The notes under the pieces: model-generated
Told to the model about the DNA's origin: nothing
The model's input: the letters and a program-made list of their open reading frames with translations, nothing else
Databases searched by the model: none
Translations under genes and position numbers: made by a program
Part shown: piece after piece, positions 1 to 63,522 of the stretch
How positions within the stretch are numbered: the stretch's first letter is position 1
Layout: each line of letters opens with the position of its first letter
Origin: Candidatus Woesearchaeota archaeon
GTDB taxonomy: Archaea; Nanobdellota; Nanobdellia; Woesearchaeales; JAFCFN01
Assembly (NCBI GenBank): GCA_017608625.1
Contig: JAFCFN010000003.1
Span: 3,068 to 67,067 of the forward strand
Direction of reading: 5' to 3'
DNA: 64,000 bases

Positions 1-187
1 ACCTTAACTGAAAAAGGATATCTTCCTTGATCAAAAACCTCTGTAGGAGGAGCTCCTTCTGTAAAACTCAAAACTAATCCTTGAGAACCTCCAGCAAAAG
101 CAGTACCAATTTCCACTTCTTCAGCACATTTTTGTCCACCTATTAATAAGAAAAATGTCACCAGAATCAAAATAACTTCTTTTCTCA
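1..187 (-). CDS. Secreted Cys-rich protein, N-terminal fragment; the gene continues beyond the window start. Third member of the tandem paralog family.
   Basis: Minus-strand ATG at 187. Translation MRKEVILILVTFFLLIGGQKC...GSQGLVLSFTEGAPPTEVFD aligns with the N-termini of the 238..1170 and 1214..2161 proteins (signal peptide, then G.QGLVLSF..APP motif). Confidence 0.5.
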
Positions 188-237
188 TTTTACCTCCTTT
201 TTTATTTCAAATGGTTTTTTATTAATAAATCTTTTGT

Positions 238-1170
238 CTATTCAGGTGTTTTTATTATTTCTATTTGTTTTGATATTGAAGACATATAACCATAATCCAG
301 CTGAATCTTCAAAGGAGTTTCATAAGCATCTCCTGTTGTTGGTTTGCTTGCATAACAAATTATAAAACCTCGATTATTGTACAGATCAATTTGATAATCA
401 TTCGGCCTACAATCATACAAAGGCTCCCCAGAAATCTCTGCTGAAAAATCAACCCTATTTAAATTTGTATAATCTAATCTTCCAGGACAAGCATCAAGCT
501 GGTCAACATCAACAACCAAGCCATCTCCAACATTCTGAACATATATCTTGAATTGTATTTTATCCTTCATCACAGCTTCCTCAACTCTGGTAACAGCAAC
601 AGGTCCTCCTTGGGAAGTTAAACTTACATCATGAACAGTACATACTTTTTCCCTAACCTCTGCTGAATAAGGATTGGGATCTATGCAAACAACAGGAGTG
701 GCTATTGTTTGATACTCATAACATGCTGTTGCTAACAAAGCAGGTTTGTAAGACTCAACTCCTTCTGGTAATTGTATTATAGAAGAAGTAAAATCTACTA
801 CGCTGTATCCTCCTTCTGGATTATACTGATCCTTTCCAAATAAATTTCTATCAATCTCTTGCCAATCACCTTCATCAAATATAATATAATTTGGATCAAA
901 ACCTCTCAAGTAAAGCTTTCCTATAAAATTCTTATTCTCTGTAGAAGAAGGATAAGCACCTTTATTTTTTATCTCTATCCCAACCCTTAACTCATCTAAA
1001 TCATAAATCTTATTAGGAGGCATATTGTTCATAAAACTCAAAACCAATCCTTGATTACCAACCCTATATTTAGATTCTACAACCTCTTCTCTAGCTTTTC
1101 TCGGACATGCTTGGCCAGCTATAAGTAAGAAAATTGTTATTAAAGCAATTATACCTATTTTTTTATCCAT
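238..1170 (-). CDS. Secreted Cys-rich beta-rich protein, paralog family member 2
   Basis: N-terminal signal peptide. About 7 conserved Cys and blocks (TPVVCIDPNPY, TSQGGPVAVTRVEE, LDYGYMSSIS) shared with 1214..2161. Confidence 0.6.
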   Translation of the reverse strand: MDKKIGIIALITIFLLIAGQACPRKAREEVVESKYRVGNQGLVLSFMNNMPPNKIYDLDELRVGIEIKNKGAYPSSTENKNFIGKLYLRGFDPNYIIFDEGDWQEIDRNLFGKDQYNPEGGYSVVDFTSSIIQLPEGVESYKPALLATACYEYQTIATPVVCIDPNPYSAEVREKVCTVHDVSLTSQGGPVAVTRVEEAVMKDKIQFKIYVQNVGDGLVVDVDQLDACPGRLDYTNLNRVDFSAEISGEPLYDCRPNDYQIDLYNNRGFIICYASKPTTGDAYETPLKIQLDYGYMSSISKQIEIIKTPE

Positions 1171-1213: not shown

Positions 1214-2161
1214 TTATTTCTCTATTATAATTTCTCTTGATATGGTGGATGTATAACCGTACTCCAGTTTAATGTTTAAAACAGTTTCATAAGCTAACTC
1301 TTCTTTATCTATCCAATCCTGTTCTAGAGCAGAACATCTTACAAAATTTCTTGTTTTGGTTAATTTTACAGGATTTGGAGTACAGCTTAATTCCTTGCCA
1401 GATAAATATGCCTTTACATTAACTATATTCCATGAATCCTTGCTTAAACCAGTTGCAGAGCAAGCCTCTTCTATATCATCCTTATTAACAATTTGACCAT
1501 TACCTTTATTTGTTATATAAATCAAAAATTGAGGCTCTACTTTATCCCCATGTACAATCATCTTTTGTTCAACTTTTGTAACAGCAACTGGAGCGCCTTG
1601 AGAATTTAAACCAATATCTTTAACAGCACATGACTTTTCCCCAGCCCTTAAATTATAAACATCAGGATCAATACATACAGTTGGATTTACTGTTGTAGAA
1701 TATTTATAGCAAGTTGTTAAGCCAATTGTGCTTGTGTGACTTTCCATCAATTCTTCTATTTTTTTTGTCTTAGCTGTTATTTTTATAATACCCTCTCCTC
1801 CGTATATATTGTACTCAGATTTACCTTCTAAATCAAAAATCACTTGCTCAGGACCAAAACCAGAACTAACAATAGGCTCTTCAAAACTCCAGTCATACAG
1901 CTCAACATAATCTTTTTCTAAACTAAGAGTTAGATAACCTCCCTCAACATCAGAAACACCTTTATTTTTAATATTAGCTATAATTTGAAACTCACTATCT
2001 TCTGCTATTTTATCAGGAGGAGCCCCATTTAAAAACTCCATCACTATTCCTTCCGTTCCTTTATAGATGTCAATTGGTTGAGGTTTTTGAATAAAAGTAC
2101 ATCTTGTATAACCTGAAATAAAGAGCAATACCAAGATTAAAAATAAAATTGTTTTTTTCAT
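1214..2161 (-). CDS. Secreted Cys-rich beta-rich protein, paralog family member 1
   Basis: Signal peptide. Conserved blocks NPTVCIDPDVY, NSQGAPVAVTKVEQ, LEYGYTSTIS paralogous to 238..1170. Confidence 0.6.
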   Translation of the reverse strand: MKKTILFLILVLLFISGYTRCTFIQKPQPIDIYKGTEGIVMEFLNGAPPDKIAEDSEFQIIANIKNKGVSDVEGGYLTLSLEKDYVELYDWSFEEPIVSSGFGPEQVIFDLEGKSEYNIYGGEGIIKITAKTKKIEELMESHTSTIGLTTCYKYSTTVNPTVCIDPDVYNLRAGEKSCAVKDIGLNSQGAPVAVTKVEQKMIVHGDKVEPQFLIYITNKGNGQIVNKDDIEEACSATGLSKDSWNIVNVKAYLSGKELSCTPNPVKLTKTRNFVRCSALEQDWIDKEELAYETVLNIKLEYGYTSTISREIIIEK

Positions 2162-4020
2162 TCTATACCTTGGATTTTAGCCCTGTATGCAGTGACTTCA
2201 TTATACCACTGATCTTTCGCTTCTGCATAACAATGGGTGCTTGTTTCAAAACCAGAACCCTGAATACAAACTATTTTTGCAGGAGTATCTTGACCGTATC
2301 CATCAACATAATTCTGTTTAATCAAACGATAAAATTCAGTTATACTATCTCTAATTGTACCAAATTTTCTGTATATTGGATGTAATACACACTGTGTACC
2401 TGTACCGATAAATGAAATGCCAAAAAGATTCCTACAATCTTTCGAAACAATACTTCTGTAGCCCCAACTTTCATGCATTGCAACAGCAATAGCAAAGGCA
2501 GGATCTATATCATACATTGCTCCATAATTATAAAAGTTATCAACCTGATTTATCAAATCAGGTGCATACTGTGTAAGATAACTTTTGATTTGATCTTTTG
2601 TCACTTTTTGTTCCATTTTAGACCAAACAACTGTTCCTTTAGATAAAGCAGTAGCAGTTGATTTCGCATCTTCCAAAATTGAAGGCTTCTTGGTAATAGC
2701 TTCTGTTTCTTCTCCTTTTTTGACACTAACAACTGTTGACTTATTCAATCTATAATTATATTCTACTATAACTTTAAAATACCTTGTTGCTATTGGTGTT
2801 GTTCCTAACAACCTTAAATCAGGATCTACATTAAAATCACATTTAAATGTTTCAAATGTTTCAACTTTCAATTTTTTAGGTTTTGATAAAATATATAAGT
2901 TATAGCCTTCTTCACATTCTTCCATTGGAGCACCTTTACCATAACATTGCTGATATCTGAAATCATAACCTTTTTCACAACTTAAATTATCCATGCTCAA
3001 ACCATCAGGAACTTTTATTATTAAATTTGTAATTTCTTTTATTCCTCCATCCCATCTATTATTTAGAGTGACTCCTAAAGAAACTGAATTCAGATATTTC
3101 CTAGATGGTTCAGTATAAATTCCAATAGGCTGCTTTCCTGTTTCAACTTGCATACCAATTTCAACTGGACCATTACTATAAATAGCAACGGGGCTTTTAT
3201 CCTTTATTCCATATTGATCCAGAACATCAATCCCCTCCCTTGTCATTGTTCTTAATCTTGTTTTATCAATAAAATAACTTTTAATATAAGCCATCGTCTT
3301 AAAATTAAAATCAGCATTAAAAGTAACTTTGTGTATTCCTTCTGACAAAGGAGGCAAGTTGCACTCAATATCTTCTTCCTCATAGAGATCAATAGCATAA
3401 TCCTTTGTTAAATATTTTGGATTTATTTGTCCTTTAATCTCCTTCGCATTACAACCAACACTTACATTAACAGGCTCATCAAGAACTTTTGCTTTTAGAG
3501 TAGCCCACACTATCACGGGTTCATTAGAATAAAAATAAGGATCAGCTGGCTTTAGATCTTCCAAATAAACACCAATAGGTTCATACCTGTTTTTATCAAC
3601 TTTGCCTGTAAAATAGTCTCCTGTTAAAGCAGCTTCATATTTTTTCTGATATTCAGTTATTTTCTCAAACGGTTTTATAAATATCATTCCTACTTTAGTT
3701 AGAAGTCCACCAATTTTTTGTCCAAGTGTTTCACCAGGCATTGCAAGGTAAATACTTTTGCCAAACCAATATAGCCCTATAAAAATAATGAAAATAATAG
3801 GTAAAATAATAAAAAAAGATTTCCAATTTTCTGTCCTTTTATAAACATAAAAATAATCAAAAATTCCTGCTAAGAAAAGCAAAATAAGAACAACAAAGAC
3901 ACCCAATATCTGAAAGCCAAGAAACCATACTAAAATCATTGTTATTATAATTGCTATAATTGAAAAAACAAGCCCTAAAATATCATTTCCAGTTTCTCTA
4001 ATCCCTATCTCATCAACCAT
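2158..4020 (-). CDS. Membrane-anchored protein (N-terminal TM helices, large extracytoplasmic region) with a C-terminal GH73-like N-acetylglucosaminidase (glycan hydrolase) domain
   Basis: Three to four N-terminal hydrophobic helices. C-terminal AIAVAMHESWGY...RNLFGIS resembles the GH73 glucosaminidase motifs AQAALESGWG...NNLFGIK. Confidence 0.5.
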   Translation of the reverse strand: MVDEIGIRETGNDILGLVFSIIAIIITMILVWFLGFQILGVFVVLILLFLAGIFDYFYVYKRTENWKSFFIILPIIFIIFIGLYWFGKSIYLAMPGETLGQKIGGLLTKVGMIFIKPFEKITEYQKKYEAALTGDYFTGKVDKNRYEPIGVYLEDLKPADPYFYSNEPVIVWATLKAKVLDEPVNVSVGCNAKEIKGQINPKYLTKDYAIDLYEEEDIECNLPPLSEGIHKVTFNADFNFKTMAYIKSYFIDKTRLRTMTREGIDVLDQYGIKDKSPVAIYSNGPVEIGMQVETGKQPIGIYTEPSRKYLNSVSLGVTLNNRWDGGIKEITNLIIKVPDGLSMDNLSCEKGYDFRYQQCYGKGAPMEECEEGYNLYILSKPKKLKVETFETFKCDFNVDPDLRLLGTTPIATRYFKVIVEYNYRLNKSTVVSVKKGEETEAITKKPSILEDAKSTATALSKGTVVWSKMEQKVTKDQIKSYLTQYAPDLINQVDNFYNYGAMYDIDPAFAIAVAMHESWGYRSIVSKDCRNLFGISFIGTGTQCVLHPIYRKFGTIRDSITEFYRLIKQNYVDGYGQDTPAKIVCIQGSGFETSTHCYAEAKDQWYNEVTAYRAKIQGIE

Positions 4021-4044: not shown

Positions 4045-5214
4045 TCACTCTAACTTAACACTTAAATCAACAATATCCATTGTTATTGAAGGCTCTATCT
4101 TAACTGCATTATTACCTTTTATAACATGATCACTAATATCAAACTCATAAATCTGATCCTTTCCATCTATGTATAATGTTTTTGAATTAACAATGATTTT
4201 TGCAGCCTTATACGCAATATTATCTGCAAACTTTAGCTTTAAACTAACTCTTCTGTCTTTATTTTGAATAGCATTATACTGCTCATCATTCAAATTAAAG
4301 TAATATGTTGGATGAACATATTCTCTAAGATAAGATGCAACCTTTATTTGATCCAATAGATAATCCCCCGCCGTTGTAGTAAATCTAATATTGTTTTCAT
4401 CAGAATTAATATGTGAAGGTGAAAACTCTATAGCAGGTAACGGACTATTACAATAATCAGGCTTACCAGAGAATATGGTGTTTCCATTAATTTCTATAGT
4501 GAGCTTCCCAACTAAGCTTAAGTTACAATAAGGTACAAACTTTAATCTTGCATACTCTAAATGATTCTTCTCAGTTGCAGAAACGAGGAATACAGCAGAC
4601 GCTGTCTGTCCACTAACATCAGTCACATCTCCCGTAATAACAATATTTTCAAGCGTATAAGAATTGCTACCAAGAATACCTGCTCTAGAAACACTAAATT
4701 TCAAAATATTTTCTCCTTCTTTAAGGTACTCTTTTGGTAGCTCTAGTGGCTGAGCTGTTTTTATTTCTTTGTTAAGTATCTCTTTATCATTCAAAATTAC
4801 TATTAATCTACCGTCACTTTCTTTAACAGAATAACCTAAAATGACATTATCTGTATTTTCCAAATCACCTATTGTAAAGTTAATCTCTTTTGATTTTCCT
4901 CCTAATAACCATCTACTTACATGAATTGAATCTAATTTTTTGAATATGACACCTTCTGTTTTAGTATATAAATGCAGAGTAGGAATAGAATGTTCTATCT
5001 TATCTTCTTCTAAATAATCCAATCTTCCAGGATGCGCTAAAAGAAGCATCTCTTCTTCAGCAGCCCCTACCTCTTCTTCTGTTACATTCTCTCCATACAA
5101 TAACTCATGTCTTTGAGCAGGAGGTAATAAAGCAATATACAAAACAATAATTAAAGCAATAATAGCAATAAGAGTAGCAGCTCTACCACCAGAGATCTGA
5201 GCCTTTTTAAGCAT
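4045..5214 (-). CDS. N-terminally anchored surface protein, possibly carrying a class III (type IV pilin-like) signal peptide
   Basis: MLKKAQISGGRAATLIAIIALIIVLYIALL resembles the archaeal prepilin N-terminus (KK[GA]Q then a hydrophobic stretch). The rest is beta-rich and extracellular-like. Confidence 0.4.
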   Translation of the reverse strand: MLKKAQISGGRAATLIAIIALIIVLYIALLPPAQRHELLYGENVTEEEVGAAEEEMLLLAHPGRLDYLEEDKIEHSIPTLHLYTKTEGVIFKKLDSIHVSRWLLGGKSKEINFTIGDLENTDNVILGYSVKESDGRLIVILNDKEILNKEIKTAQPLELPKEYLKEGENILKFSVSRAGILGSNSYTLENIVITGDVTDVSGQTASAVFLVSATEKNHLEYARLKFVPYCNLSLVGKLTIEINGNTIFSGKPDYCNSPLPAIEFSPSHINSDENNIRFTTTAGDYLLDQIKVASYLREYVHPTYYFNLNDEQYNAIQNKDRRVSLKLKFADNIAYKAAKIIVNSKTLYIDGKDQIYEFDISDHVIKGNNAVKIEPSITMDIVDLSVKLE

Positions 5215-5310
5215 TAATAATCACCTCAGAATAACTAATTAAAGTTATCATATATAAAAATTTCTCTTTAAATCGCTATTTATTTAAATAGTCTTTAATA
5301 TATTAAAAAT

Positions 5311-6366
5311 ATGCAGCTCATAACAAAAAACATCAAAAAAGGATTTGTAAAGCTGAAGATACAAAATCTGGATGATTTATGGTATCTAAGTAATATAATG
5401 AACAAAGGAGATTTAATTAGAGCTCAGACCATAAGAAAAATAAAAATAGGTAAAGAAGAAGAAAGAAAACAGGCAATAGTAAAGAAAAAGATAACACTCA
5501 CGATTAAAGCAGAAAAAGTTGAATATAAAGCAGATTCTTTAAGAGTAGGAGGAAAAATAACAGAATGCCCAGAAGATATTCAGAAAGGCAGCTGGCATTC
5601 ATTTAATTTAACAGTCAATTCTATTTTAACAATAATAAAAAATGAGTGGTTAAAATATCAGTTAGACTGGCTAAAGCAAGCTTCTAAAGAGAAAATTCCT
5701 AAAATTTTAATCTGTTGTTTAGATAGGGAAGAAGCATATTTTGCTTTATTAAAAAGAGCAGGTTACGAAATTCTTAGTCATATAAAAGGAAAAGTGGCCA
5801 AAAAAGCAGTTGAGGAAAAACTAAAAACAACTTTTTGGCAAGAACTTGCTAAGAAAACCAAAGAATATGATGAGAAACTAAAACTAGATAAAATAATTAT
5901 TGCAAGCCCATCCTTTTGGAAAGAATACTTGATTAAAGAAATAAAAGATCATTCTCTGAAAGAAAAGATCGTATTAGCTAGTTGCTCCAGTGTTGATAAA
6001 ACAGGTTTGAATGAAGTGTTAAAAAGACCAGAGCTAGTTAATGTTCTGAAAGAAGAAAGAATAGCAGAAGAAATTAATCTAGTAGAGGAATTATTAACAG
6101 AAATCAAAAAACAGGGAAAAGTTAGTTACGGCTTAAAAGAAACAGAACAAGCAATTAATTCAGGAGCTGTTGAAAAATTATTGGTTACTGATTCTTTCTT
6201 AAAACAAATGAGAGAGCAAGAGAAAGCAGATCAGATAAATCAACTAATGAAACTAACAGAACAAATGAAAGGTTCTGTTATAATTATTTCTTCAGAACAT
6301 GAAGGCGGAAAAAAACTAGATTCTTTGGGCGGAGTAGGAGCATTATTAAGGTATAAAATTAATTAA
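5311..6366 (+). CDS. pelA: Pelota / Dom34 (aRF1-related mRNA surveillance factor)
   Basis: N-terminus KLKIQNLDDLWYLSNIMNKGDLIRAQTIRKI matches the Pelota domain 1 signature. Length 351 aa. Confidence 0.85.
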   Translation: MQLITKNIKKGFVKLKIQNLDDLWYLSNIMNKGDLIRAQTIRKIKIGKEEERKQAIVKKKITLTIKAEKVEYKADSLRVGGKITECPEDIQKGSWHSFNLTVNSILTIIKNEWLKYQLDWLKQASKEKIPKILICCLDREEAYFALLKRAGYEILSHIKGKVAKKAVEEKLKTTFWQELAKKTKEYDEKLKLDKIIIASPSFWKEYLIKEIKDHSLKEKIVLASCSSVDKTGLNEVLKRPELVNVLKEERIAEEINLVEELLTEIKKQGKVSYGLKETEQAINSGAVEKLLVTDSFLKQMREQEKADQINQLMKLTEQMKGSVIIISSEHEGGKKLDSLGGVGALLRYKIN

Positions 6367-10772: not shown

Positions 10773-12431
10773 ATGCCAACAATAAACTTTAGCTTAAAAG
10801 ATTTGCAGCTTTTAATTAGAAAAAAAGCTAGCATAGAAGAATTAAGAGAACTATTAACTTATTGCAAAGCAGAGCTTGACGACTATGATAAAACAACAGA
10901 TGAAGTTAGTGTTTCACTTGCCGACACAAATCAGCCTTATTTATGGAGTGTAGAAGGAATAGCAAGATTGCTTAAAGGAGTTCTTGGAAAAGAAAAAGGC
11001 ATACCGAAACTAAAGATAAACAAATCAAGTTATAAATTAATTGTTGACAGCTCTATCAAAGAAGTCAGACCTTATATAGCTGCTTTTGTTGCAAAAGGAA
11101 AAAAGATATCTGACTATTTATTAAAACAAATTATACAGTTACAAGAAAAATTATCAGAGAATTATGGTCAGAGAAGACAAAAACTGGCAATAGGCGTTTA
11201 TCCTTTAAGCAAAATAAAATTCCCAATCTATTATAAAGCAATACTACCAGACTCAATCTCGTTTGTTCCTTTAGATTTCAAAAAAGAAATGACTCCACAA
11301 GAAATCTTAGAAGAACATCCAAAAGGGCAAGAATATAGTTACATACTTAAGGACTATAAAAAATATCCTATTTTAATTGACTCAGAAAAAAATGTTCTTT
11401 CATTCCCTCCAGTAATTAATTCTGCTGAAACAGGAAAAATAGAAGAAGATGAGCAAGAATTGTTTTTTGAAGCAACTGGAACAGATCTAAATACTGTTTT
11501 ATTAGCTGCGAATATATTTGCCCAAGCATTATACGATAGAGGCTTCACAATCTATTCAGTAGCTATTAATTATAAGAACAAAAGGATTTTAACACCAAAA
11601 CCATTTAATGAAAACATTAAAATCAAAAAACAAGATGTAGAAAATATTTTAGGATTAAAGCTAAAAGACTTTGAAATTAAGACATTACTGGAAAAAGCAA
11701 GATACAAATTTCAGAATTACAAAGTTCTAATTCCAGATTATAGACAAGATATTATGCATCCTGTTGATGTTATAGAAGATATAGCAATAATGTATGGATA
11801 TTCAAACATAAAAGATTCTCCTCTTAAAACTTACACTCCTGGAAACACATTTGATATAGTAAAATTTAGAAACAAAGCAAGACAACTAATAATTGGACAA
11901 GGATTCCAAGAAATTTTTTCTCCAATTCTATCAAATAAAAATTTATTGTACACTAAAATGAATACAAAAGATTTTGGAACAATTGAGGTTAAAGAATATA
12001 TGTCAGAAACCTATTCATGTGTTAGAACGTGGTTAATACCAATTTTAATGGATGTATTAGCAAAAAACAAACATATCTCTTATCCACAAAAGATCTTTGA
12101 ACAAGGTCTTGTTACAGTTAAGAAATTTGATAAAATAACTGATTTTGAAAGATTAGCAGCATTAATAGCATCTGATAAAGCAGATTATACAAGAGCAAGA
12201 CAAAGCATAGATGCATTATTTAGAGCATTAGGAATAGGGTATGAGATAGAAGAAACAGAGCATTCATCATTTATTAAAGGAAGAGTTGGAAGAGTAATTG
12301 TAAATGGAAAAAAAGTAGCATTTGTTGGAGAAATCTCACCAAAAGTTCTGGAAAACTTTGCATTATTAGTACCAGTTGCTGGTTTTGAGCTAAATCTAAC
12401 TGAATTATTCGAGGCTATTAAGAATAAATGA
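10773..12431 (+). CDS. pheT: Phenylalanyl-tRNA synthetase beta subunit (archaeal type)
   Basis: 552 aa, adjacent to pheS. B3/4 and B5 domain-like blocks typical of archaeal PheT. Confidence 0.85.
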   Translation: MPTINFSLKDLQLLIRKKASIEELRELLTYCKAELDDYDKTTDEVSVSLADTNQPYLWSVEGIARLLKGVLGKEKGIPKLKINKSSYKLIVDSSIKEVRPYIAAFVAKGKKISDYLLKQIIQLQEKLSENYGQRRQKLAIGVYPLSKIKFPIYYKAILPDSISFVPLDFKKEMTPQEILEEHPKGQEYSYILKDYKKYPILIDSEKNVLSFPPVINSAETGKIEEDEQELFFEATGTDLNTVLLAANIFAQALYDRGFTIYSVAINYKNKRILTPKPFNENIKIKKQDVENILGLKLKDFEIKTLLEKARYKFQNYKVLIPDYRQDIMHPVDVIEDIAIMYGYSNIKDSPLKTYTPGNTFDIVKFRNKARQLIIGQGFQEIFSPILSNKNLLYTKMNTKDFGTIEVKEYMSETYSCVRTWLIPILMDVLAKNKHISYPQKIFEQGLVTVKKFDKITDFERLAALIASDKADYTRARQSIDALFRALGIGYEIEETEHSSFIKGRVGRVIVNGKKVAFVGEISPKVLENFALLVPVAGFELNLTELFEAIKNK

Positions 12432-13246
12432 ATAAACAACCAAAAATAGGTCTTGTTCTAGGAGGGGGAGGGGCTAAAGGTCTAGCTAGTATAGGAGTTC
12501 TAAATGTTTTACTAAGCAAGAAAATTCCAATCCATTGTGTTGCTGGAACAAGCATAGGATCACTTATTGGTGCATACTACGCAATAAATTTGGAAGTTAA
12601 AACTTTAGAAGATTTAGTAAACAAAATGAACAAAAAAGATTTTATTAAACTTATTGATTTAACCTCTCCTAAAAAATCATTGATAGGTGGCAGAAAAATC
12701 AAAAGATTTCTTAAAAAGATTATCAATAAAAAATACTTTTCTGATACAAAAATACCTCTCACAATCGTTGCTACTGATCTAAGAACTGGTAAAGAAATTA
12801 GACTAAAGAAAGGAAAATTAATAGACGCTATTATGGCAAGTATTAGCATACCTGGAATTTTCCCTCCATACAAAATTAATGATAGATTATTAGTAGATGG
12901 GGGGATTTCGAATCCAACACCGATTGATGTTATTGATGAAATGGGAGCAGACATAATTATTGCAGTTGATTTTACACTACCAGAAAAAATAAAGCTAAGA
13001 TCCCCAACAATTATTGATACTGTAATGAGAAGCTTTGAAATTCTTAGAGGACAAACAGCAAAATTAAGAATGCTTGAAGTAAAAAGAGATTTTATTCTAA
13101 TAAAACCAAAGTTGAGCACAGAATCCAAGTTTATAAGATATGATTTAGCAAAAGATTTCATGAAACAAGGAGAATTAGCAGCAAAGAAAATCTTACCAAA
13201 GATACAAAAAGCATTAAACAAATATTTTGAAAATAAAAAGAAATGA
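12428..13246 (+). CDS. Patatin-like phospholipase
   Basis: GLVLGGGGAKG oxyanion motif, GTSIGS nucleophile elbow (GxSxG), DGG catalytic Asp motif. Confidence 0.8.
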   Translation: MNKQPKIGLVLGGGGAKGLASIGVLNVLLSKKIPIHCVAGTSIGSLIGAYYAINLEVKTLEDLVNKMNKKDFIKLIDLTSPKKSLIGGRKIKRFLKKIINKKYFSDTKIPLTIVATDLRTGKEIRLKKGKLIDAIMASISIPGIFPPYKINDRLLVDGGISNPTPIDVIDEMGADIIIAVDFTLPEKIKLRSPTIIDTVMRSFEILRGQTAKLRMLEVKRDFILIKPKLSTESKFIRYDLAKDFMKQGELAAKKILPKIQKALNKYFENKKK

Positions 13247-28292: not shown

Positions 28293-28688
28293 ATGAAAAA
28301 ATTTATACTTAAAGATGGAAAGCTTATTAGTCTCCCAGAGCCAAACAAAGATTATCCTAATAAAAAATTAGATCGAGAAACTTTGGGAGAAATACTAGAT
28401 GATCTATGTGCAATAAATGCTGTTTTGGAGCATTGTGGTACTCTTTTGGATCTAAAAGTAAAAGATCCTGACTACTTAAATCCAACACTTTTTACTGAAG
28501 GTTCTGGATGTGGCCAAACATATAGAGAGTACCTTGAACAAATAAAATACGCCCTTGAGAATGGAATAAAGAGAAAAAGTTTCAGCAATGAAGATATACA
28601 AATTCTACGAGGTGTAAGAGCCCCCTATATAGATTCAGAGGGAATTACAAAAAAACTAGATTTTAACAAATCAAAGTACGGAATTTAA
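28293..28688 (+). CDS. Hypothetical protein
   Basis: ORF only. Divergent from the r-protein operon. No recognisable motif. Confidence 0.35.
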   Translation: MKKFILKDGKLISLPEPNKDYPNKKLDRETLGEILDDLCAINAVLEHCGTLLDLKVKDPDYLNPTLFTEGSGCGQTYREYLEQIKYALENGIKRKSFSNEDIQILRGVRAPYIDSEGITKKLDFNKSKYGI

Positions 28689-30010
28689 TTTTTCTTTTCA
28701 TTCTTTTTCTTATCTTTATTCAAATGAAATGTCTTTCTCACACTATAATTAACAGGGTTTTTAATCTTAGAACAAAGATTATCTGGCTTGCAAACACCAA
28801 TCTCTTTATAGTAAAGATTATTCGCACAATTTGGAGGCAAAACCTTTTTCTTGTGATTTTTATGATATTTTATTTGACTCATTAAATAGCCGTCACTTAG
28901 CGGTGTGCTATTTTTTTTATTCCATTCTCTGAGAAATTTTTCCATCTGTTCGTAATCCCAACCAAGACTTGATAAAAAATTAATCAAAATAAACAATGCT
29001 CTTTTTCTTCCATCTTCCAAACCTTTCAAAATCAATTTAATACACGGAGGGAAGAACTGCTCTTGAACAGCTTTTACAGGCACATTAAATTCTTTTGCAT
29101 TTTTAATACCTAAATTTTCTTCTTTTATATTAAAATCAAAAGCCTGTACAATTAGTTGTTTTGCCTCACCCTTAGTTACATTACTCCTTTCTAAAAAATG
29201 TCTTTCGACTTTAACATTTTCTGGCTTTGCTTTTTCTTTATTAAACTCCAAAACTTCATCAAGAGAAATTGGCAAAGAGATTAAACCGGATTTTTCATTA
29301 AAACAATAAGGCATTCTATAAAGATGTCTTTTAGAAATCAAAATAGTATCAATATCTACTAAGGAAAAAGGATCTAATTCATTATTTATGATTATTTCAT
29401 TAAATTTTTTCCCACTTTTCTTCATCAATTCTCTAATGTCATATTTTTTTAAAATTTCCTTAGCTAAGTGCTTTCTTACCATCTCTTTCAAATAAGCAGC
29501 TATCTTTCTCGGTCCATCTGGATATAATAATCTTGTTTCTTTGTCATAAACTTTATCAGGAAAAGCTTCGAATGGCACACCAATATGAAAACCCTTGTTC
29601 CCAGAAAATTTGCAAGAAACACTTTTAATGCCATAATACTTTAATGCTTTGATTATTAAATCAGCAGCTATTTTACTAAGCTCTAGATCACAGCTATCTA
29701 CATCCAAAACCAAATCCCAACCTTTTCTTAATGAATTCAACTCTTTTTCTTTCATATGTGTATCTATTTGTAATGGATTACTCCATAACTCTTCAGAAGC
29801 ATGAAAAGAGGTTGCACCCTGTTTAGCTAACTCCAGTATATCTCCTTCATGTTGTAATGTATCAGGCCTTTTTCCAAAACCTTTATTTCCATATTTAACT
29901 GCAATTTCTCTATCCTTCGCATTAGCTAGAATAGCCTTTTGTACATCCTTTCTTTTATAGTATTTTAGAAGAGTGCTTAATGTTAACATATTTATAACTA
30001 AGAATAACAA
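28685..30010 (-). CDS. DNA primase, fused small-subunit catalytic domain (PriS) and large-subunit Fe-S C-terminal domain (PriL-CTD)
   Basis: PriS motifs LVLDVDSCD (DxD) and FSGNKGFHIGV (SGxRG[YF]H). C-terminal FFPPCIKLILKG plus Cys at PPNCANN, GVCKPDNLC matches the PriL 4-Cys Fe-S domain. Confidence 0.75.
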   Translation of the reverse strand: MLFLVINMLTLSTLLKYYKRKDVQKAILANAKDREIAVKYGNKGFGKRPDTLQHEGDILELAKQGATSFHASEELWSNPLQIDTHMKEKELNSLRKGWDLVLDVDSCDLELSKIAADLIIKALKYYGIKSVSCKFSGNKGFHIGVPFEAFPDKVYDKETRLLYPDGPRKIAAYLKEMVRKHLAKEILKKYDIRELMKKSGKKFNEIIINNELDPFSLVDIDTILISKRHLYRMPYCFNEKSGLISLPISLDEVLEFNKEKAKPENVKVERHFLERSNVTKGEAKQLIVQAFDFNIKEENLGIKNAKEFNVPVKAVQEQFFPPCIKLILKGLEDGRKRALFILINFLSSLGWDYEQMEKFLREWNKKNSTPLSDGYLMSQIKYHKNHKKKVLPPNCANNLYYKEIGVCKPDNLCSKIKNPVNYSVRKTFHLNKDKKKNEKKN

Positions 30011-36191: not shown

Positions 36192-36872
36192 TTAATGCTT
36201 TTGTTTCTTTAAATAGTTTTTCTTTATTAAATCAATCATTTCCTCTTCATGCCCAGCCCCGATTATACCTAAAATCAACTTTTTGGGATTTTCTTTCATT
36301 ATATTATAAAAATTTCTTGCCATAACATCATTTCTTTCCTTAACCAGAACCTTGTAAACATTAGGATATCTTTTTTTAACATCATTCATTAACTTTTTAA
36401 TAGTAGCTTTACTAGGCACCTTTGTTAAATCAAAAGCAATTTTTTTCCTTTTAAAAGGAGCAGTTAGAATATCAATCAAGAAATTAATCTTCTCTTTAAA
36501 ACTAAATTCTTGAGAAAATCTTCTTAGAGTAATCTCAATGTCCTGATCAACTAAAGCAATCTTTTTTTTCTTAGCTTTAGCTAGTTTAGTAGCCATTAAC
36601 ATTTCAGATCCAGGTTTCACTCCAACATATTTCCCCAATCTTGCTTCAACCCACGCACCAATTAACTGGAAAAGAAAACCTTTAAGCCCTACTCTTTTAA
36701 TATCAACTAACTTTGGTTGTTTCCTTTTATGAACCAAAGCAGAAAATCTTCTCTTATCAAGCTCCAAAGCAATTATATGAGGATTCTTTTCAAGAATAAC
36801 TTTCTTTACATCCTCTATACTTTGCTTTGCTATATGACTTGTTCCTATTAATATCAGATTCTTGTACTTCAT
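36192..36872 (-). CDS. TraB/PrgY/GumN-family protein
   Basis: LILIGTSHIAKQSIEDVKKVILEKNPHIIALELDKRR matches the TraB N-terminal signature (GTAHVS...VAVELD). Confidence 0.55.
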   Translation of the reverse strand: MKYKNLILIGTSHIAKQSIEDVKKVILEKNPHIIALELDKRRFSALVHKRKQPKLVDIKRVGLKGFLFQLIGAWVEARLGKYVGVKPGSEMLMATKLAKAKKKKIALVDQDIEITLRRFSQEFSFKEKINFLIDILTAPFKRKKIAFDLTKVPSKATIKKLMNDVKKRYPNVYKVLVKERNDVMARNFYNIMKENPKKLILGIIGAGHEEEMIDLIKKNYLKKQKH

Positions 36873-41186: not shown

Positions 41187-42194
41187 ATGTATGAAGCCCT
41201 TTATTATAAGAAACTGCCAAACAAAAAACTACAATGCCTTCTCTGTCCAAAACGCTGCATTATAGATGTTAACAAAAAAGGGAATTGCAGAGCAAGGAAA
41301 AATATTAATGGCAAACTTGTTTCTTTGGTTTATGCAAAACCTTGTTCTATAGCAATAGATCCTATTGAAAAAAAGTCTTTGTTTCATTTCTTGCCTGGCT
41401 CAGAAGCCTACTCTATAGGAACAGCAGGTTGCAACTTGCATTGTCAGTGGTGCCAAAACTGGGAAATCTCTCAAGCAAATCCAGAAGATATTCCTTACAG
41501 AGAGTTAGAACCAGAACAATTAGTTCAAAATGCTTTGGAAAATAATTGTAAAAGCATTGCTTATACTTATACAGAACCAACCATTTTCTATGAATATGTG
41601 TTAGATACAGCAAAACTAGCAAGAAAAGCTGGAATAAAAAATGTCATGGTAACTTCTTCTTTCATTAATCAAGAACCTCTCAAAAAATTATACAAATATA
41701 TTGATGGAGCAAATATAGACTTCAAAAGTTTTGATGACAACTTTTATAGAAAATACTGCTTTGCTTGGCTAGAACCAATTTTAGAAGCAATAAAAACAAT
41801 TCACAAATTAGGAGTTTGGGTAGAACTAACAAATTTAATAATTCCAACTTTGAATGATGATTTGAAAAAAATAAAAGAAATGTGCGAATGGATAAAAGAA
41901 AATACTGGAGTAGATGTTCCACTGCATTTTACAGCTTTTTACCCTTATTATAAAATGCTCAATTTGCCAAGAACATCTCCAGAAATACTTCTAAAAGCAA
42001 GAGAAACTGCACTAAAAATTGGATTAAACCATGTTTATGTTGGAAATGTTCCTACAGAAAAAGCTGAAAATACTTATTGCCCTAAATGCAATGAACTTTT
42101 AATAGAAAGAGCTGGTTTTGGTATAATAAAAAACAACCTCAAGAATGGAAAATGTCCAAACTGTTCTGCAAATATTGCTGGAGTTTGGGATTAA
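41187..42194 (+). CDS. AmmeMemoRadiSam-system radical SAM enzyme (PFL-activase-like)
   Basis: N-terminal LQCLLCPKRCIIDVNKKGNCRARKN Cys cluster, then radical-SAM CNLHCQWCQN (CxxxCxxC). Confidence 0.7.
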   Translation: MYEALYYKKLPNKKLQCLLCPKRCIIDVNKKGNCRARKNINGKLVSLVYAKPCSIAIDPIEKKSLFHFLPGSEAYSIGTAGCNLHCQWCQNWEISQANPEDIPYRELEPEQLVQNALENNCKSIAYTYTEPTIFYEYVLDTAKLARKAGIKNVMVTSSFINQEPLKKLYKYIDGANIDFKSFDDNFYRKYCFAWLEPILEAIKTIHKLGVWVELTNLIIPTLNDDLKKIKEMCEWIKENTGVDVPLHFTAFYPYYKMLNLPRTSPEILLKARETALKIGLNHVYVGNVPTEKAENTYCPKCNELLIERAGFGIIKNNLKNGKCPNCSANIAGVWD

Positions 42195-44332
42195 TTTTTT
42201 TATTTTTTCTACCAACAGTTTTGGCAGATATAACAAACCTTACAATAAATGAAGTAATGTACAATCCTAAAGGTTCTGATACAGATGCAGAATGGATCGA
42301 AATTTATAATCCTAATAATGAACTAATTAATTTTCTTGATGATGCATTATTTATTGCTGATGATAGATATGAACAGCAAATTCAGGACTATTCTGGTTGG
42401 ATTACAGAAACAAATGCTACTTACTTTATAATTACTTCTTGCTACTCTTCTTTTTATGACACATTAAATAATACAGACATTATATTTAATCCAATGGACT
42501 GGCTTCATCTTGATGATGAAGGTAATCCAAGATGCGATAGGATTGGAAACAATCTGAAAAACACAGAAGACTATATTGAACTTTGGTATTGTGGCAATAA
42601 AGAGGAGGAATGTGATTTGTTGGATTTTTTATGGTATAATTCATCAGCCGTTTACTATAATAATACTTATTATTCTATTGAAGGAAATACAAATGGTAAA
42701 TCATTACAACTTATAAACAATAGTTGGATAGCAGCAGACCCTACTCCTGGTCAGGCCAATGAGCTGGTTGAAGAGCAAACTCCTCAAAAAGAAATAAAAC
42801 TCATTACCAATATAGATGTGTTTTTGTTTAATCATTTAAATTACACGAAACTCTTCAAGATACAAATTAAAAACAAGGATAATTGTTCAGAAAAAGAGAA
42901 TATTTCGATCAATTATAGTGTATATGACAATATAAATGATGAGTATATAAAAGAAGATAATTTTACAGTAGAGGTTGGATGCACAAAAACATCAGGTACA
43001 GGACATATTTATTTTGAAGATCCAGGAAATTATACTCTCTGCGGTTATCTAATCAATAATACAAACATATCTGATTGTTTAGATGTTGAGGTAGTGAATA
43101 CAAGCACAATAAAATGCAATCTTTCTTTAGAAATTAATAATACAAAAGAAATCTATGAATACCCAGAAAAGATTATATTTCGGCCAATTCTCTCTAACAA
43201 AACATTTCCTTATAAAATAGAGTATTGGTTTGAAGATTTATTTGGAAATATTGTACGTAAGAAAATAACAACTTTAAATACTTATAGAAAATCATGGAAA
43301 CCAAGCTTGGATGAACCAGATAAAGTATTTCTAATAAAGTTAAATTTATCTTTTATTGCTTGTAATGACACTAATTTAACAGACAATTCTGCTGAACAAC
43401 TCATTATTGTAAAAGATCCCACTTATTCTAAAATCTCCCCAGAAAACAATTCGTATGTAAAAATACTTGAAGTAGATCTTGGCTCTGACAATAAAGCAAA
43501 ATTCGGAGAAGCAATTAAAGTCAAAATAAACATCTACAGAGGCAACACCCAAAAATACTCAACATCTTTATGGGTAGAAGGAACTAGCAAGATATCCACA
43601 GAAACACTAAAAATACATACTCTAACAAAATTCACGAACTACACATTTACAATTCCTGTTCAGCTAAAACCAAATTGTGATAAAGATTATGCTGATGGTA
43701 TTTACTATGTAAAACTAGAAGGCCTTAACTCATCAGACTCAGCAACAATAAATGTAGAAGGAATAACCTCATCACTATGTGAAGAATCCAGTTCTTCTTC
43801 ATCTTCTTCAAAATCAAAATTCTCTTTCGAAATACTTTCCATGCCAAATAAAATAGAAATAGGAAAGGAATTTACAACAAAAGTAAAAATTACATCAGAT
43901 GATGAAGAACATATAATAGACATTTGGAGCTATGTTTACAAAGGTAATAAATGTTATTCAGGAGAAAGAGAAGAAAATCTCCAAAGCATAACTCTTCCAG
44001 CAGACTCTTCTGTTATAGTAGAACTTAAGAATACTGTAAAGGATGCAGAACCAGGTTCTTATAAATTTAAAGTAAAGCTTAGAAAAGACAATCAAAAAAC
44101 ACCAAAAGAACTCACAAAAACCATTACTCTAACAGCCCCAGAAATAATAACAACAGTTTCCGAAACAAATATAAACCAAAAAGACTCTTGTTCGGATAGT
44201 ATAACAATTTTTAACTGCTCTGAGGGGATTTTAGTTTACGAATCTTCCTCAGAAAAAACAAAAAAATTAACATATTGGTTAATTTTACTGGCATTATTTT
44301 TGCTTAATGCTTTTTTGATATGGAAAAAATAA
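42152..44332 (+). CDS. Large secreted surface protein with a lamin-tail-like domain (LTD), a poly-Ser linker and a C-terminal TM anchor
   Basis: Signal peptide. LTINEVMYNPKGSDTDAEWIEIYNPNN matches the LTD signature. SSSSSSSSKSK tract. C-terminal LTYWLILLALFLLNAFLIWKK. Confidence 0.55.
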   Translation: MSKLFCKYCWSLGLIFLFFLPTVLADITNLTINEVMYNPKGSDTDAEWIEIYNPNNELINFLDDALFIADDRYEQQIQDYSGWITETNATYFIITSCYSSFYDTLNNTDIIFNPMDWLHLDDEGNPRCDRIGNNLKNTEDYIELWYCGNKEEECDLLDFLWYNSSAVYYNNTYYSIEGNTNGKSLQLINNSWIAADPTPGQANELVEEQTPQKEIKLITNIDVFLFNHLNYTKLFKIQIKNKDNCSEKENISINYSVYDNINDEYIKEDNFTVEVGCTKTSGTGHIYFEDPGNYTLCGYLINNTNISDCLDVEVVNTSTIKCNLSLEINNTKEIYEYPEKIIFRPILSNKTFPYKIEYWFEDLFGNIVRKKITTLNTYRKSWKPSLDEPDKVFLIKLNLSFIACNDTNLTDNSAEQLIIVKDPTYSKISPENNSYVKILEVDLGSDNKAKFGEAIKVKINIYRGNTQKYSTSLWVEGTSKISTETLKIHTLTKFTNYTFTIPVQLKPNCDKDYADGIYYVKLEGLNSSDSATINVEGITSSLCEESSSSSSSSKSKFSFEILSMPNKIEIGKEFTTKVKITSDDEEHIIDIWSYVYKGNKCYSGEREENLQSITLPADSSVIVELKNTVKDAEPGSYKFKVKLRKDNQKTPKELTKTITLTAPEIITTVSETNINQKDSCSDSITIFNCSEGILVYESSSEKTKKLTYWLILLALFLLNAFLIWKK

Positions 44333-63244: not shown

Positions 63245-63522
63245 AGTGGGCAAGCATGCCCAGAGATGGATATAATATTGCCCACCAGCTACCTTAACTC
63301 TTTCTTGATTCCGCTACCCCATAAGCATCAATTCAAATAGTTAGTGCTGCTCCATTCCTGGCCTGACACATTTCCTATAAGCATTGATCCTATGGGACAG
63401 AATCTCATAGTCCGAGTTAAGACCAGCGAGCAAAGCTTATACCTCTCTCCAGGCTTCGACCCCATGTAAAGCCCATTCATGGTTACAGGAGAGGGCTAAC
63501 CTCCCGGTCTAGCTTGCCCATG
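63245..63522 (-). ncRNA. ffs: Signal recognition particle RNA (7S/SRP RNA), minus strand
   Basis: GC-rich island. Minus-strand GTCAGGCCAGGAATGGAGCAGCACTAAC matches the conserved helix-8 motif GUCAGGUCCGGAAGGAAGCAGC. Terminal helix GGGCAAGC/GCTTGCCC. Confidence 0.7.

Follow-up and report, generated by a model that had tools for sequence, protein, structure and literature searches.

The locus and its gene content

The window, i.e. the whole stretch of 64,000 nucleotides from a Candidatus Woesearchaeota contig that was analyzed, carries near its start a gene for a 620-residue protein with a C-terminal domain of glycoside hydrolase family GH73, referred to here as the scaffold protein. The segment that the preliminary description had singled out on the reverse strand (2158-2700) corresponds to the final 180 codons plus stop codon of the reading frame 2158-4020, and the strings quoted from it were recovered in place, AIAVAMHESWGY as residues 510-521 and RNLFGIS as residues 530-536. 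Public collections hold an identical protein (P0001). The gene is the second of a five-gene operon that adjoins pelota and encodes a pilin-like or signal-anchored protein (g389), the scaffold protein and three lipoprotein paralogs. The following features were distinguished:

5215-5310, reverse strand: intergenic region between the operon and the divergent pelota gene (direct sequence reading)
4045-5214, reverse strand: g389, first gene of the operon, 389 residues, directly upstream of the scaffold gene
2158-4020, reverse strand: scaffold gene (open reading frame list), 620-residue protein with C-terminal GH73
3760-3981, reverse strand: three transmembrane helices, residues 14-33, 37-58 and 68-87 (Kyte-Doolittle, AF2)
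2716-3624, reverse strand: beta-rich ectodomain, residues 133-435, the family-defining core (pLDDT 80-92, HMM, Cys conservation)
2611-2709, reverse strand: disordered linker, residues 438-470, between ectodomain and enzyme module (pLDDT ~30)
2161-2610, reverse strand: GH73 (PF01832) N-acetylglucosaminidase domain, residues 471-620 (Pfam, AF2, Foldseek, PDB profile search)
2470-2472, reverse strand: codon of E517, the predicted general-acid Glu (near-invariant in the family; aligned to LytB E585)
2227-2229, reverse strand: codon of Y598, the Tyr equivalent to that of the GH73 'YATD' motif (invariant in alignment A2; PDB profile alignment)
1214-2161, reverse strand: lipoprotein-like paralog 1, 315 residues, its start overlapping the scaffold stop codon by 4 nt
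238-1170, reverse strand: lipoprotein-like paralog 2, 310 residues (37% identical to paralog 1, E 1e-52; synteny)
1-188, reverse strand: lipoprotein-like paralog 3, N-terminus only as the gene runs off the window start, translation MRKEVILILVTFFLLIGGQKCAEEVEIGTAF...

The intergenic region contains a TATA-like element, TTTTATATA, at about 5251-5259 and a Shine-Dalgarno-like GAGGTGA at 5221-5227, both upstream of the first ATG of the operon, and it probably represents the operon promoter. The archaeal origin that had been proposed for the DNA is corroborated by the archaeal SRP RNA, the archaeal RNase P RNA and the Pelota gene within the window, and its DPANN-like character by the named relatives, which are all Woesearchaeota, Nanoarchaeota or Pacearchaeota. 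The GH73 segment and its neighbours have the same GC and GC3 values, without any anomaly, so that the segment is neither a recent horizontal insertion nor contaminating DNA.

Conservation of the operon

A purpose-built HMM of the ectodomain matched all 41 related loci (E 1e-70 to 1e-131; window protein E 2e-130), and this homology together with the operon position next to pelota places the window protein in a woesearchaeal scaffold family. Of the loci, 30 extend beyond the scaffold gene in both directions; all of them keep the operon, and 26 also have pelota as its divergent neighbour. The gene order is identical in every locus that is long enough to show it. In 32 of the 41 loci the scaffold gene is directly preceded by g389, and five of the other nine start at the scaffold gene itself. 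The operon thus conserved would have been inherited vertically across the order.

No match was obtained for any of the operon proteins in an NCBIfam scan, and g389 and the ectodomain (residues 133-435) lack a Pfam family as well. The N-terminus of g389 follows a conserved pattern, 'KKAQ..(hydrophobic 20)..LP', that would act as a signal anchor or else as a class III signal of the prepilin type, the latter being the basis for the putative pilin-like character. The orthologs of paralog 1 have signal peptides with a lipobox-like L-x-[AS]-G-C sequence, and the MRKEVILILVTFFLLIGGQKCAEEVEIGTAF... sequence of paralog 3 matches the third paralogs of loci L001 and L002. A BLASTP comparison of the scaffold with the neighbouring lipoproteins was not significant; profile-profile comparison aligned them over 249 co-linear columns (29% probability, E 6e-4), and the three lipoproteins may on that basis be distant paralogs of the scaffold ectodomain. 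A comparison of g389 with the lipoproteins showed no relationship.

Architecture of the scaffold protein

The three hydrophobic segments at the N-terminus (residues 14-87) reach Kyte-Doolittle window values of 2.5-2.9 and coincide with helices in the full-length AF2 model (13-33, 38-63 and 67-93), which supports the earlier claim that the protein is membrane-anchored. The loop at residues 59-67 is rich in Lys/Arg, as are N-terminal extensions found in scaffold orthologs, and application of the positive-inside rule predicts an N-in/C-out topology with the C-terminus outside.

All 10 cysteines of the protein fall in the predicted ectodomain, and within the alignment of 32 full-length scaffold orthologs (A3) C190, C220 and C348 occur throughout and C394 in at least 90% of the sequences. 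Foldseek did not yield a family assignment for this part, as the full-length model gave generic tandem beta-sandwich/adhesin-like matches alone (integrin legs, MSCRAMM adhesins, RbmA and the AglB C-terminal domain), with a TM-score of ~0.15. The ectodomain ends on a strand with the sequence 'V.VKK', right after which the orthologs diverge, so that the junction at which modules are swapped is located just ahead of the linker.

The C-terminal domain belongs to family GH73

The C-terminal domain, described earlier as GH73-like, is a genuine member of the family, as borne out by three checks that the preliminary description had proposed, namely an HMM match, a lysozyme-like fold and the position of the catalytic Glu. 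Residues 495-601 (nt 2218-2538) match positions 3-113 of the 123 of the Pfam profile PF01832 (Glucosaminidase), with a score of 35.2 bits (E 2e-8) for the whole protein and 38.6 bits (E 2e-9) for the 180-residue fragment, in both cases above the curated gathering cut-off of 30.2 bits. It is the sole Pfam domain of the protein at E-values up to 1. A word-index homolog search with the 160-residue domain recovered one protein and the relatives came from an exhaustive HMMER search; a PDB profile search with the domain plus 29 relatives then returned the GH73 enzymes Ecd09610 (E 3.5e-15) and LytB (E 1.7e-13), where the best match of a single-sequence phmmer search reached only E ~0.04.

The structure prediction agrees with this. 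The GH73 part of the full-length AF2 model had a pLDDT of only ~40-60 because the alignment there is ~3 sequences deep; re-modelled with a 30-sequence alignment, residues 456-620 gave a pLDDT of 95.2 and a pTM of 0.91. The best 24 Foldseek matches of this domain model in the PDB are all GH73 enzymes (TM 0.5-0.73; LytB E 9e-7, TM 0.67-0.72), whereas g-type lysozyme/GH23 folds reach only E >0.01. The predicted fold is thus the lysozyme-like one that characterizes GH73, in which a groove is formed by a helical subdomain with a central helix and a beta-lobe or hairpin, and the model includes a short beta-lobe with a strand at residues 550-552.

An invariant general-acid Glu on the central helix is a criterion for GH73 (PMC4752226). 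The equivalent residue is probably E517, the Glu of 'MHES'. It is near-invariant across 110 relatives in a motif listing, and at least 90% of the 30 sequences of alignment A2 keep it. In the profile alignment it shares a column with E585 of LytB, the residue that is Q in the E585Q mutant chain. Single-sequence phmmer put H516 on the catalytic column of LytB, a placement overruled by the profile alignment and the family conservation. Y598 is invariant in A2 and is aligned with the Tyr of 'HQYATD' in the S. aureus Atl glucosaminidase (6fxo). Including these two, the protein retains E517, N531, Y571, Y598 and W605, and the family-conserved positions are all present except that the Gly following the catalytic Glu comes one residue early (ESWGY versus ESxxG). 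Acidic residues are absent from the beta-hairpin region (residues 537-556, FIGTGTQCVLHPIYRKFGTI), and A2 shows no conservation of the column. A second catalytic carboxylate on this hairpin is found in FlgJ, Auto and TM0633 and is absent from or dispensable in other GH73 enzymes (PMC4752226). Judged by its residues, the domain is apparently active.

An exchangeable C-terminal module

The C-terminal module of the scaffold is the sole variable part of the conserved operon. Among the 32 full-length orthologs, GH73 is present on 4 (3-4 by Pfam) and an SLT/GH23 domain on 9-10 (9 by Pfam), attached at the same junction, and the remaining ones have fn3/PKD-like or unknown tails. Locus L032 has a tail of 7 residues only, thus little beyond the core. 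When ten tails without hydrolase were scanned at a relaxed threshold, one additional SLT domain (L024) and weak fn3 matches appeared, and otherwise nothing. The carriers of GH73 and SLT interleave on the scaffold tree, a neighbour-joining tree without support values, where the window protein, with GH73, has the SLT carrier L002 as its sister, and L013, also with GH73, falls inside an SLT clade. Neither the window protein nor any of the 32 orthologs contains a recognized peptidoglycan-binding domain (LysM, PG_binding, SH3, SPOR). Because around 55-60% of the orthologs lack any recognizable hydrolase module, the core function of the operon is not wall degradation.

Probable substrate and mode of action

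The chemistry of SLT/GH23 lytic transglycosylases requires MurNAc, and the sole substrate common to GH73 and SLT/GH23 chemistries is the MurNAc-GlcNAc glycan. The occurrence of SLT/GH23 domains at the same junction of the same scaffold therefore favours bacterial peptidoglycan as the substrate of the GH73 module. The same substrate is supported by the nearest relatives of the GH73 domain, as these are fused to murein hydrolase domains: Amidase_2 and Amidase_3 (MurNAc-L-Ala amidases), NlpC/P60 and Peptidase_M15_4. For another relative, P0044, the source gives the name murein DD-endopeptidase MepM/NlpD (M23-type). Among these proteins, at least one comes from a Pacearchaeota archaeon and another occurs in an archaeal context.

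Given these associations, we think it fairly probable that the scaffold is a surface protein that brings about contact-dependent cutting of bacterial peptidoglycan by a tethered GH73 enzyme, encoded in an operon with an exchangeable module. The three N-terminal helices would hold the scaffold in the membrane, and the ectodomain, a beta-sandwich of ~300 residues, would together with the flexible linker of ~30 residues project the GH73 endo-beta-N-acetylglucosaminidase outward. As the enzyme stays tethered, it would act only on what the cell touches, where it would locally hydrolyze the GlcNAc-beta-1,4-MurNAc bonds of bacterial peptidoglycan with E517 as general acid. Opening of the sacculus would then allow attachment, membrane access or feeding. 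The enzyme would be an exchangeable add-on, replaced in orthologs by SLT/GH23, by a non-enzymatic beta-sandwich tail or by little beyond the core.

The same catalytic evidence applies equally to a role in nutrient scavenging, where the tethered enzyme would process loose peptidoglycan debris or muropeptides from the surroundings and thereby release amino sugars close to the transporters of the cell. Tethering would hold the products close to the cell, and the metabolism of Woesearchaeota is reduced, with recycling of cellular compounds having been proposed (PMC9723730). Nevertheless, the lytic transglycosylases of the orthologs yield anhydro-muropeptides, which are poor general nutrients in the absence of dedicated recycling enzymes, and none of the latter was seen in the operon or the window. 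Considering moreover that the module resides on a conserved multi-protein surface structure and is not a soluble secreted enzyme, scavenging appears unlikely.

Slightly less likely still is an activity towards another GlcNAc-containing polymer, be it chitin or chitooligosaccharides, the S-layer N-glycans of an archaeal host, or methanogen pseudomurein. The Pfam family name includes mannosyl-glycoprotein endo-beta-N-acetylglucosaminidase, GH23-fold chitinases occur among the distant fold matches (3w6b), and the window protein lacks the peptidoglycan-binding domains mentioned above. Furthermore, the hosts of cultured DPANN archaea so far are, to our knowledge, archaea in every case, which counts against a bacterial target. 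However, the significant structural and profile matches are all peptidoglycan hydrolases and the nearest relatives are fused to hydrolase domains specific for the peptide stem of murein. In pseudomurein the linkages are beta-1,3 and MurNAc is lacking, and the enzymes known to lyse it are endoisopeptidases. Of the two targets envisaged in the preliminary description, a bacterial partner is much better supported than pseudomurein, through the SLT orthologs and the murein-hydrolase fusions.

Housekeeping of the own envelope, in which the enzyme would remodel an endogenous murein-like layer or clear room for the surface structure of the operon, comparable to FlgJ and VirB1, would be in keeping with a gene that belongs to a core surface operon passed on vertically, and tethered GH73/SLT domains are established to do the same in bacterial flagella and secretion systems (PMC4752226). 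Yet murein-synthesis or other wall-related genes were not found among 20 larger reading frames of the window, the enzyme is missing from more than half of the orthologs, and GH73 and GH23 are swapped among close relatives. Woesearchaeota are moreover not known to make a sacculus, and we consider this explanation very improbable. We regard as equally far-fetched a lectin-like module devoid of catalysis that would serve adhesion by binding glycan strands and leave them intact. In its favour, the non-enzymatic fn3/PKD-like tails at the same position in many orthologs suggest a mainly adhesive slot, and the loop that follows the catalytic Glu is displaced by one residue. Against it, all five residues listed above are retained, and the Glu is also present in the three other GH73 copies on scaffolds whose sequences were read (P0002/L001, the L005 fragment and P0029).

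Relation to known systems

With the GH73 enzymes of Firmicutes and phages (S. pneumoniae LytB 7pj3/4q2w, C. difficile Ecd09610 8yxk, S. aureus AtlE/Atl/SagB and C. perfringens Acp) the window protein shares the Pfam family, the lysozyme-like alpha+beta fold (TM 0.6-0.73), the general-acid Glu on the central helix, the NxFG block and the YATD-type Tyr. The identity is only 14-21%, however, and the host is archaeal. In addition, those enzymes are secreted or wall-bound, whereas the window protein is built on a polytopic membrane scaffold, lacks choline-binding, SH3b, LysM or other wall-binding repeats and shows no conserved acidic residue in the beta-hairpin.

The preliminary description had also called the domain FlgJ-type. 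The resemblance in fold holds, but there is no FlgJ_N rod-binding domain (Pfam, NCBIfam) and no flagellar context, and the host is an archaeon. In a wider sense, FlgJ, VirB1 and the hydrolases of Gram-positive conjugation systems (PrgK, TcpG and TraG) offer a parallel, as they hold GH73 or SLT domains at a membrane-bound machine for local opening of peptidoglycan and use the two interchangeably for the same job, although for the window protein the wall to be opened would be that of another cell. Flagellar, type IV secretion and conjugation genes were absent from the operon, and no homology to these systems was detected for the scaffold, g389 or the lipoproteins. The absence of VirB4/VirD4-type ATPases and other secretion genes from the operon and its flanks (window, L001-L004) argues against membership of the type IV secretion/conjugation hydrolases.

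AR20 of Castelle 2015 is reportedly counted among the extracellular murein lytic transglycosylase proteins of Woesearchaeota and Pacearchaeota. Such GH23 murein hydrolases have been published for both lineages (PMC8204110; Vigneron et al. 2022, PMC9723730), and they resemble the window protein in lineage, in predicted extracellular location and in the proposed binding or degradation of bacterial walls; orthologs of the window scaffold likewise carry SLT/GH23. The window protein itself has no SLT, and its GH73 domain is hydrolytic and directed at the other glycosidic bond. The published fam00969 (PMC8204110) includes proteins of up to 3,000 residues and may correspond either to the scaffold family, with its 620-1,144 residues, or to giant multi-hydrolase proteins of the kind of P0037 and P0044.

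Strock et al. (2025, PMC12352652) described bacteria-killing modular peptidoglycan hydrolases from archaea, which were prominent in Nanoarchaeota and include PF01832 enzymes of haloarchaea. One of these, 'Danwoldo' of Halogranum salarium, combines PF01832 with two PG_binding_1 domains and is Tat-secreted. Both proteins are archaeal PF01832 enzymes and would share bacterial peptidoglycan as target. Danwoldo, however, is a soluble secreted toxin with recognized wall-binding domains and a patchy, plasmid-biased distribution, whereas the window protein is membrane-tethered, without recognized wall-binding domain, and encoded in a core chromosomal operon. The modular class of that survey was selected on a catalytic domain plus at least one wall-binding domain, and as no such binding domain was found in the window protein, it would have fallen outside. 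Considering these reports of archaeal murein hydrolases and PF01832 enzymes (PMC8204110, PMC9723730, PMC12352652), the domain is less novel than the preliminary description assumed.

Biological implications

The findings agree with the proposal, already in the literature, that bacteria are attacked by these archaea or serve them for attachment. A tethered and apparently active peptidoglycan-cleaving domain, together with the swap between GH73 and GH23, is among the more specific genomic evidence for a physical engagement of some of these archaea with bacteria, and Woesearchaeota are among the most abundant DPANN lineages. If active on bacterial walls, the enzyme would extend the growing set of antibacterial enzymes from archaea. 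The system also provides experimental handles, in the form of an expressible domain of 150 residues and an ectodomain that can serve as bait or label for a partner, and the syntenic marker (pelota, then the operon) allows the type of module, or 'warhead', to be scored across metagenome-assembled genomes.

A more far-reaching proposal, which we put forward tentatively and consider rather doubtful, is that the five-gene operon represents an order-wide host-contact apparatus of the Woesearchaeales with exchangeable warheads (GH73, GH23 or adhesin-like) suited to the cell envelope of the partner. If this is true, the lineages with GH73 or GH23 would be episymbionts or predators of bacteria, the operon would constitute the first molecularly defined device for the interaction of an archaeon with a bacterium, and the type of warhead would be a genomic predictor of the type of host.

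A GH73 domain at the C-terminus of the scaffold

The GH73-like region of the preliminary description (2158-2700, minus strand) comprises the final 180 codons and the stop of a 620-aa ORF (2158-4020), the scaffold, and both motifs it named are present (AIAVAMHESWGY, aa 510-521; RNLFGIS, aa 530-536). In Pfam-A, PF01832 (Glucosaminidase, CAZy GH73) exceeded its curated gathering score of 30.2 bits with the whole protein (35.2 bits, E 2e-8) as well as with the 180-aa fragment (38.6 bits, E 2e-9), the match spanning aa 495-601 and profile positions 3-113 of 123. When 1.84 billion representative proteins were searched exhaustively with the GH73 domain in HMMER, 110 relatives emerged at E <=1e-3, and 23 at E <=1e-10. 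The best-conserved block in the alignment of these relatives is DPAFA[VI]AVxxxE-S, whose Glu (E517 in the window) is near-invariant; Y571 and Y598 are invariant, and N531 (NLFG block), W605 and several further positions are kept in at least 90% of the sequences.

A profile built from the domain together with 29 relatives, run against solved structures, matched Ecd09610 of C. difficile (E 3.5e-15), pneumococcal LytB (1.7e-13), Atl (1.7e-10) and AtlE (7e-9) of S. aureus, and then FlgJ, Auto and TM0633. Within the profile alignment Y598 pairs with the Tyr of Atl 'QYATD' and E517 occupies the column of LytB E585 (replaced by Q in the chain of the E585Q mutant), which, on alignment rather than on model geometry, makes E517 the predicted catalytic Glu. 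A single-sequence alignment had put H516 in this column, off by one in register because the 'ESWG' loop of the window protein is one residue shorter, and was overruled by the profile and by family conservation. The AlphaFold2 model of aa 456-620 (30-sequence alignment) reached a pLDDT of 95.2 and a pTM of 0.91, and the expected lysozyme-like GH73 fold was recovered by Foldseek, as the first 24 places against the PDB were all taken by GH73 structures. LytB was the top match (E 9e-7, TM 0.67-0.72), the others including Ecd09610, Acp, AtlE, SagB, Atl, the T6SS effector 4kt3, Auto, TM0633 and FlgJ; the sister lysozyme-like families (g-type lysozyme, GH23 chitinase, MltE/MltF) all stood at E >0.01. 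Only one GH73 feature was sought and not found: the beta-hairpin (aa 537-556) shows no conserved acidic residue; a second carboxylate is not universal among GH73 members, some of which probably use substrate assistance (PMC4752226). We are confident that this is a bona fide GH73 domain.

Membrane segments, ectodomain and linker

The membrane anchoring proposed earlier agrees with three strong TM segments in the hydropathy profile (aa 14-33, 37-58 and 68-87) and with matching helices in the full-length model. A K/R-rich loop (aa 59-67) separates segments 2 and 3, and scaffold orthologs carry long K/R-rich N-terminal extensions; by the positive-inside rule the topology would be N-in/C-out, with everything from around aa 130 outside the cell. 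The region aa 133-435, for which no Pfam or NCBIfam family was found, is beta-rich (pLDDT 80-92 in the full-length model) and resembles generic tandem beta-sandwiches of the adhesin type (TM ~0.15). All 10 Cys of the scaffold lie within this predicted ectodomain, with Cys190, Cys220 and Cys348 invariant and Cys394 present in at least 90% of the orthologs. It is followed by a disordered linker (aa 438-470, pLDDT ~30). The TM region and the ectodomain are common to the scaffold homologs retrieved by full-length search and the C-termini differ.

A conserved five-gene operon

The gene order around the scaffold is near-invariant across 41 loci: a divergent pelota gene, g389 (encoding a protein of ~390 aa), the scaffold gene and those of three ~310-aa paralogs, usually followed by an RFC small subunit gene. 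The window has the same order.

Genes of the scaffold locus (coordinates, strand, description)
5311-6366, +, pelota
4045-5214, -, g389
2158-4020, -, scaffold with GH73
1214-2161, -, paralog 1
238-1170, -, paralog 2
1-188, -, paralog 3, a ~310-aa lipoprotein-like protein, N-terminus only (MRKEVILILVTFFLLIGGQKCAEEVEIG...); the window edge cuts the gene and the operon

The scaffold stop overlaps the start of paralog 1 by 4 nt, and the operon is preceded by a TATA-like element (TTTTATATA) and SD-like motifs. Signal peptides of lipobox-like type (L-x-[AS]-G-C) occur on the paralogs in most genomes. The N-terminus of g389, 'KKAQGG.NAAILVAIIAGLIILYILFLP..ER..LL', is conserved in nearly all loci having this gene and may be an archaeal class III (prepilin)-like signal, with Gln at +1, or a plain signal anchor.

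In a profile-profile comparison the scaffold ectodomain (2716-3624, -) and the lipoproteins (1214-2161 and 238-1170, -) shared 249 co-linear columns (E 6e-4, at a probability of only 29%), and both terminate in a Y.Y....S..V.V.K-type strand. This hints that the ectodomain and the three downstream lipoproteins may be distant paralogs, which we do not put forward as a claim.

Archaeal origin and other genes of the window

The archaeal assignment of the protein is supported by the Pelota/aRF1-family gene and by two RNA genes in the window.

Archaeal RNA genes (coordinates, description)
51001-51386, archaeal RNase P RNA
63248-63519, archaeal SRP RNA

Short ORFs that follow one another on the minus strand at ~13-28 kb were taken as a putative ribosomal-protein operon; the GC content of the window is ~31%. 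The protein is almost certainly archaeal and of Woesearchaeota type. A full-length search with the scaffold retrieved 28 homologs, every named one of which belongs to Candidatus Woesearchaeota, and a further scan, in which each GTDB species was represented by a single genome, added 37 loci, titled Woesearchaeota/Nanoarchaeota/Nanoarchaeia (20), 'archaeon' (1) or 'uncultured Methanosarcinales' (16 TPA assemblies, including L006, L007, L009, L010, L013-L015, L017, L022, L023, L025 and L037-L040). The divergent pelota is still present in most of these 16, and the GC content is 32-43% in the four measured (L006, L013, L014, L023). Considering that synteny and sequence are Woesearchaeota-like, the Methanosarcinales label is probably a taxonomic error.

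Elsewhere in the window, one 441-aa ORF (28685-30010, -) matches both the PriS and PriL families and appears to be a fused primase. The DNA gyrase A subunit (47852-50242, +) and a LeuRS matching the Pfam Leucyl-tRNA synthetase editing domain tRNA-synt_1_2 (59640-62111, +) were taken as bacterial-type, in agreement with reports of such genes in DPANN. A 726-aa predicted surface protein (42152-44332, +) with a signal peptide, a C-terminal TM anchor and a lamin-tail-domain (LTD)-like motif (INEVMYNPKGSDTDAEWIEIYNP) had no Pfam match at E <=1e-5. A patatin-like phospholipase (12428-13246, +), a TraB/PrgY/GumN-family protein (36192-36872, -) and a class IV aminotransferase of the D-amino-acid or branched-chain type (62111-63016, +) are not tied to the GH73 operon.

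Exchange of the C-terminal module

The tail of the public homolog P0002 is a GH73 domain, that of P0003, P0004 and others is Pfam SLT (GH23), and the remaining homologs end in fn3, PKD or nothing recognisable. Among the 32 full-length orthologs, Pfam identified SLT in nine and Glucosaminidase in three; a custom GH73 HMM was positive for the window, L001, L006, L013 and the truncated L005, and L024 gave an additional SLT when its tail was scanned in isolation. All other tails (7-450 aa) are fn3/PKD-like or without family. The SLT copies keep the catalytic 'ES' Glu (LALAEQESG in P0003 and P0004, TAESSWDP in P0013). In a neighbour-joining tree of the ectodomain, which carries no support values, the GH73 and SLT types are intermingled: the window (GH73) pairs with L002 (SLT) as its sister, L001 (GH73) lies outside this pair, and L013 (GH73) falls inside an SLT clade (L008, L009, L010, L012) that also holds the hydrolase-less L007. 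Judged from these sequences, the enzyme/adhesin module has been swapped repeatedly, at a junction directly after the final ectodomain strand ('...V.VKK'). In both GC and GC3 the GH73 segment matches the neighbouring genes, which indicates a long-resident module and not contamination.

Probable substrate and proposed mode of action

Two independent lines indicate that the substrate is probably bacterial murein. Firstly, one slot is filled in close relatives either by a glucosaminidase of GH73 or by a lytic transglycosylase of GH23, the latter yielding 1,6-anhydro-MurNAc, and only the GlcNAc-MurNAc glycan is known to suit both. Secondly, the nearest relatives combine this GH73 domain with Amidase_3, Amidase_2, NlpC/P60 or Peptidase_M15_4, and the source of another relative, P0044, names it as an M23-type endopeptidase; every one of these activities is directed at the murein peptide stem. 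DPANN proteins account for at least part of this set: P0037 (2,619 aa) comes from a Pacearchaeota archaeon, and the P0032 gene adjoins an archaeal-type ThrRS gene and archaeal type IV pilus genes. More distant subfamily members are small Chloroflexota proteins. Of the two targets suggested in the preliminary description, the bacterial partner is thus favoured, whereas pseudomurein is unlikely, given its beta-1,3 links, its lack of MurNAc and its lysis by endoisopeptidases.

The giant DPANN proteins (P0037, P0044, P0032, P0033, P0041; 1,347-2,838 aa) may correspond to a published 'large extracellular' family; in P0033 and P0037 the GH73 domain is joined by another murein hydrolase domain (Amidase_3 and NlpC/P60), and none was found in P0032 and P0041. 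At two unrelated loci (L043:4710-5552 and L042:10921-11793) with the closest GH73 relatives (P0030 and P0032, respectively), a PF01889 (AliA_AliB) membrane-protein gene lies downstream on the opposite strand, adjacent to the hydrolase gene in L043 and beyond one unannotated 247-aa gene in L042.

We consider it reasonably probable that the GH73 domain, tethered to the membrane on its flexible linker and facing outward, would act only where the archaeon touches a surface, nicking glycan strands in the sacculus of a bacterium where the two cells meet; it would be one of the exchangeable effectors that a conserved surface complex can carry. Family, fold, catalytic residues, TM segments, synteny and module exchange are established here, and the topology, activity, substrate and biological role are predicted. 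Scavenging of debris would draw on the same murein and is unlikely. Slightly less likely still is a non-murein GlcNAc polymer; chitin or N-glycans are possible substrates of this kind, set against the GH23 alternation and the murein-hydrolase fusions. Remodelling of the archaeon's own envelope, where no murein-synthesis gene was found among 20 larger ORFs of the window, and a non-catalytic lectin role, for a domain with a near-invariant Glu, are both highly improbable.

Relation to published work

Extracellular murein-type lytic transglycosylases have been published for Woesearchaeota and Pacearchaeota, some of which were inferred to be possible episymbionts or predators of bacteria (PMC8204110; PMC9723730, the latter citing Castelle 2015 AR20). 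In a 2025 survey with experiments, archaeal peptidoglycan hydrolases, one a PF01832 enzyme, killed bacteria, and such genes were prominent in Nanoarchaeota (PMC12352652). That survey demanded a recognised wall-binding domain; Pfam detected none in the window protein or the 32 orthologs, which would place the protein outside its reach. Where the published proteins have GH23, the window protein has GH73; it is held by a polytopic anchor and lacks a recognised binding domain. Full-text literature searches returned no paper describing a GH73 domain on a Woesearchaeota scaffold, but the identical public protein (P0001) already bears a precomputed PF01832 label and the finding is not categorically new. 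What is added is the conserved five-gene operon and the repeated swapping of the C-terminal enzyme/adhesin module of the scaffold, which make the question of the partners of Woesearchaeota more directly testable.
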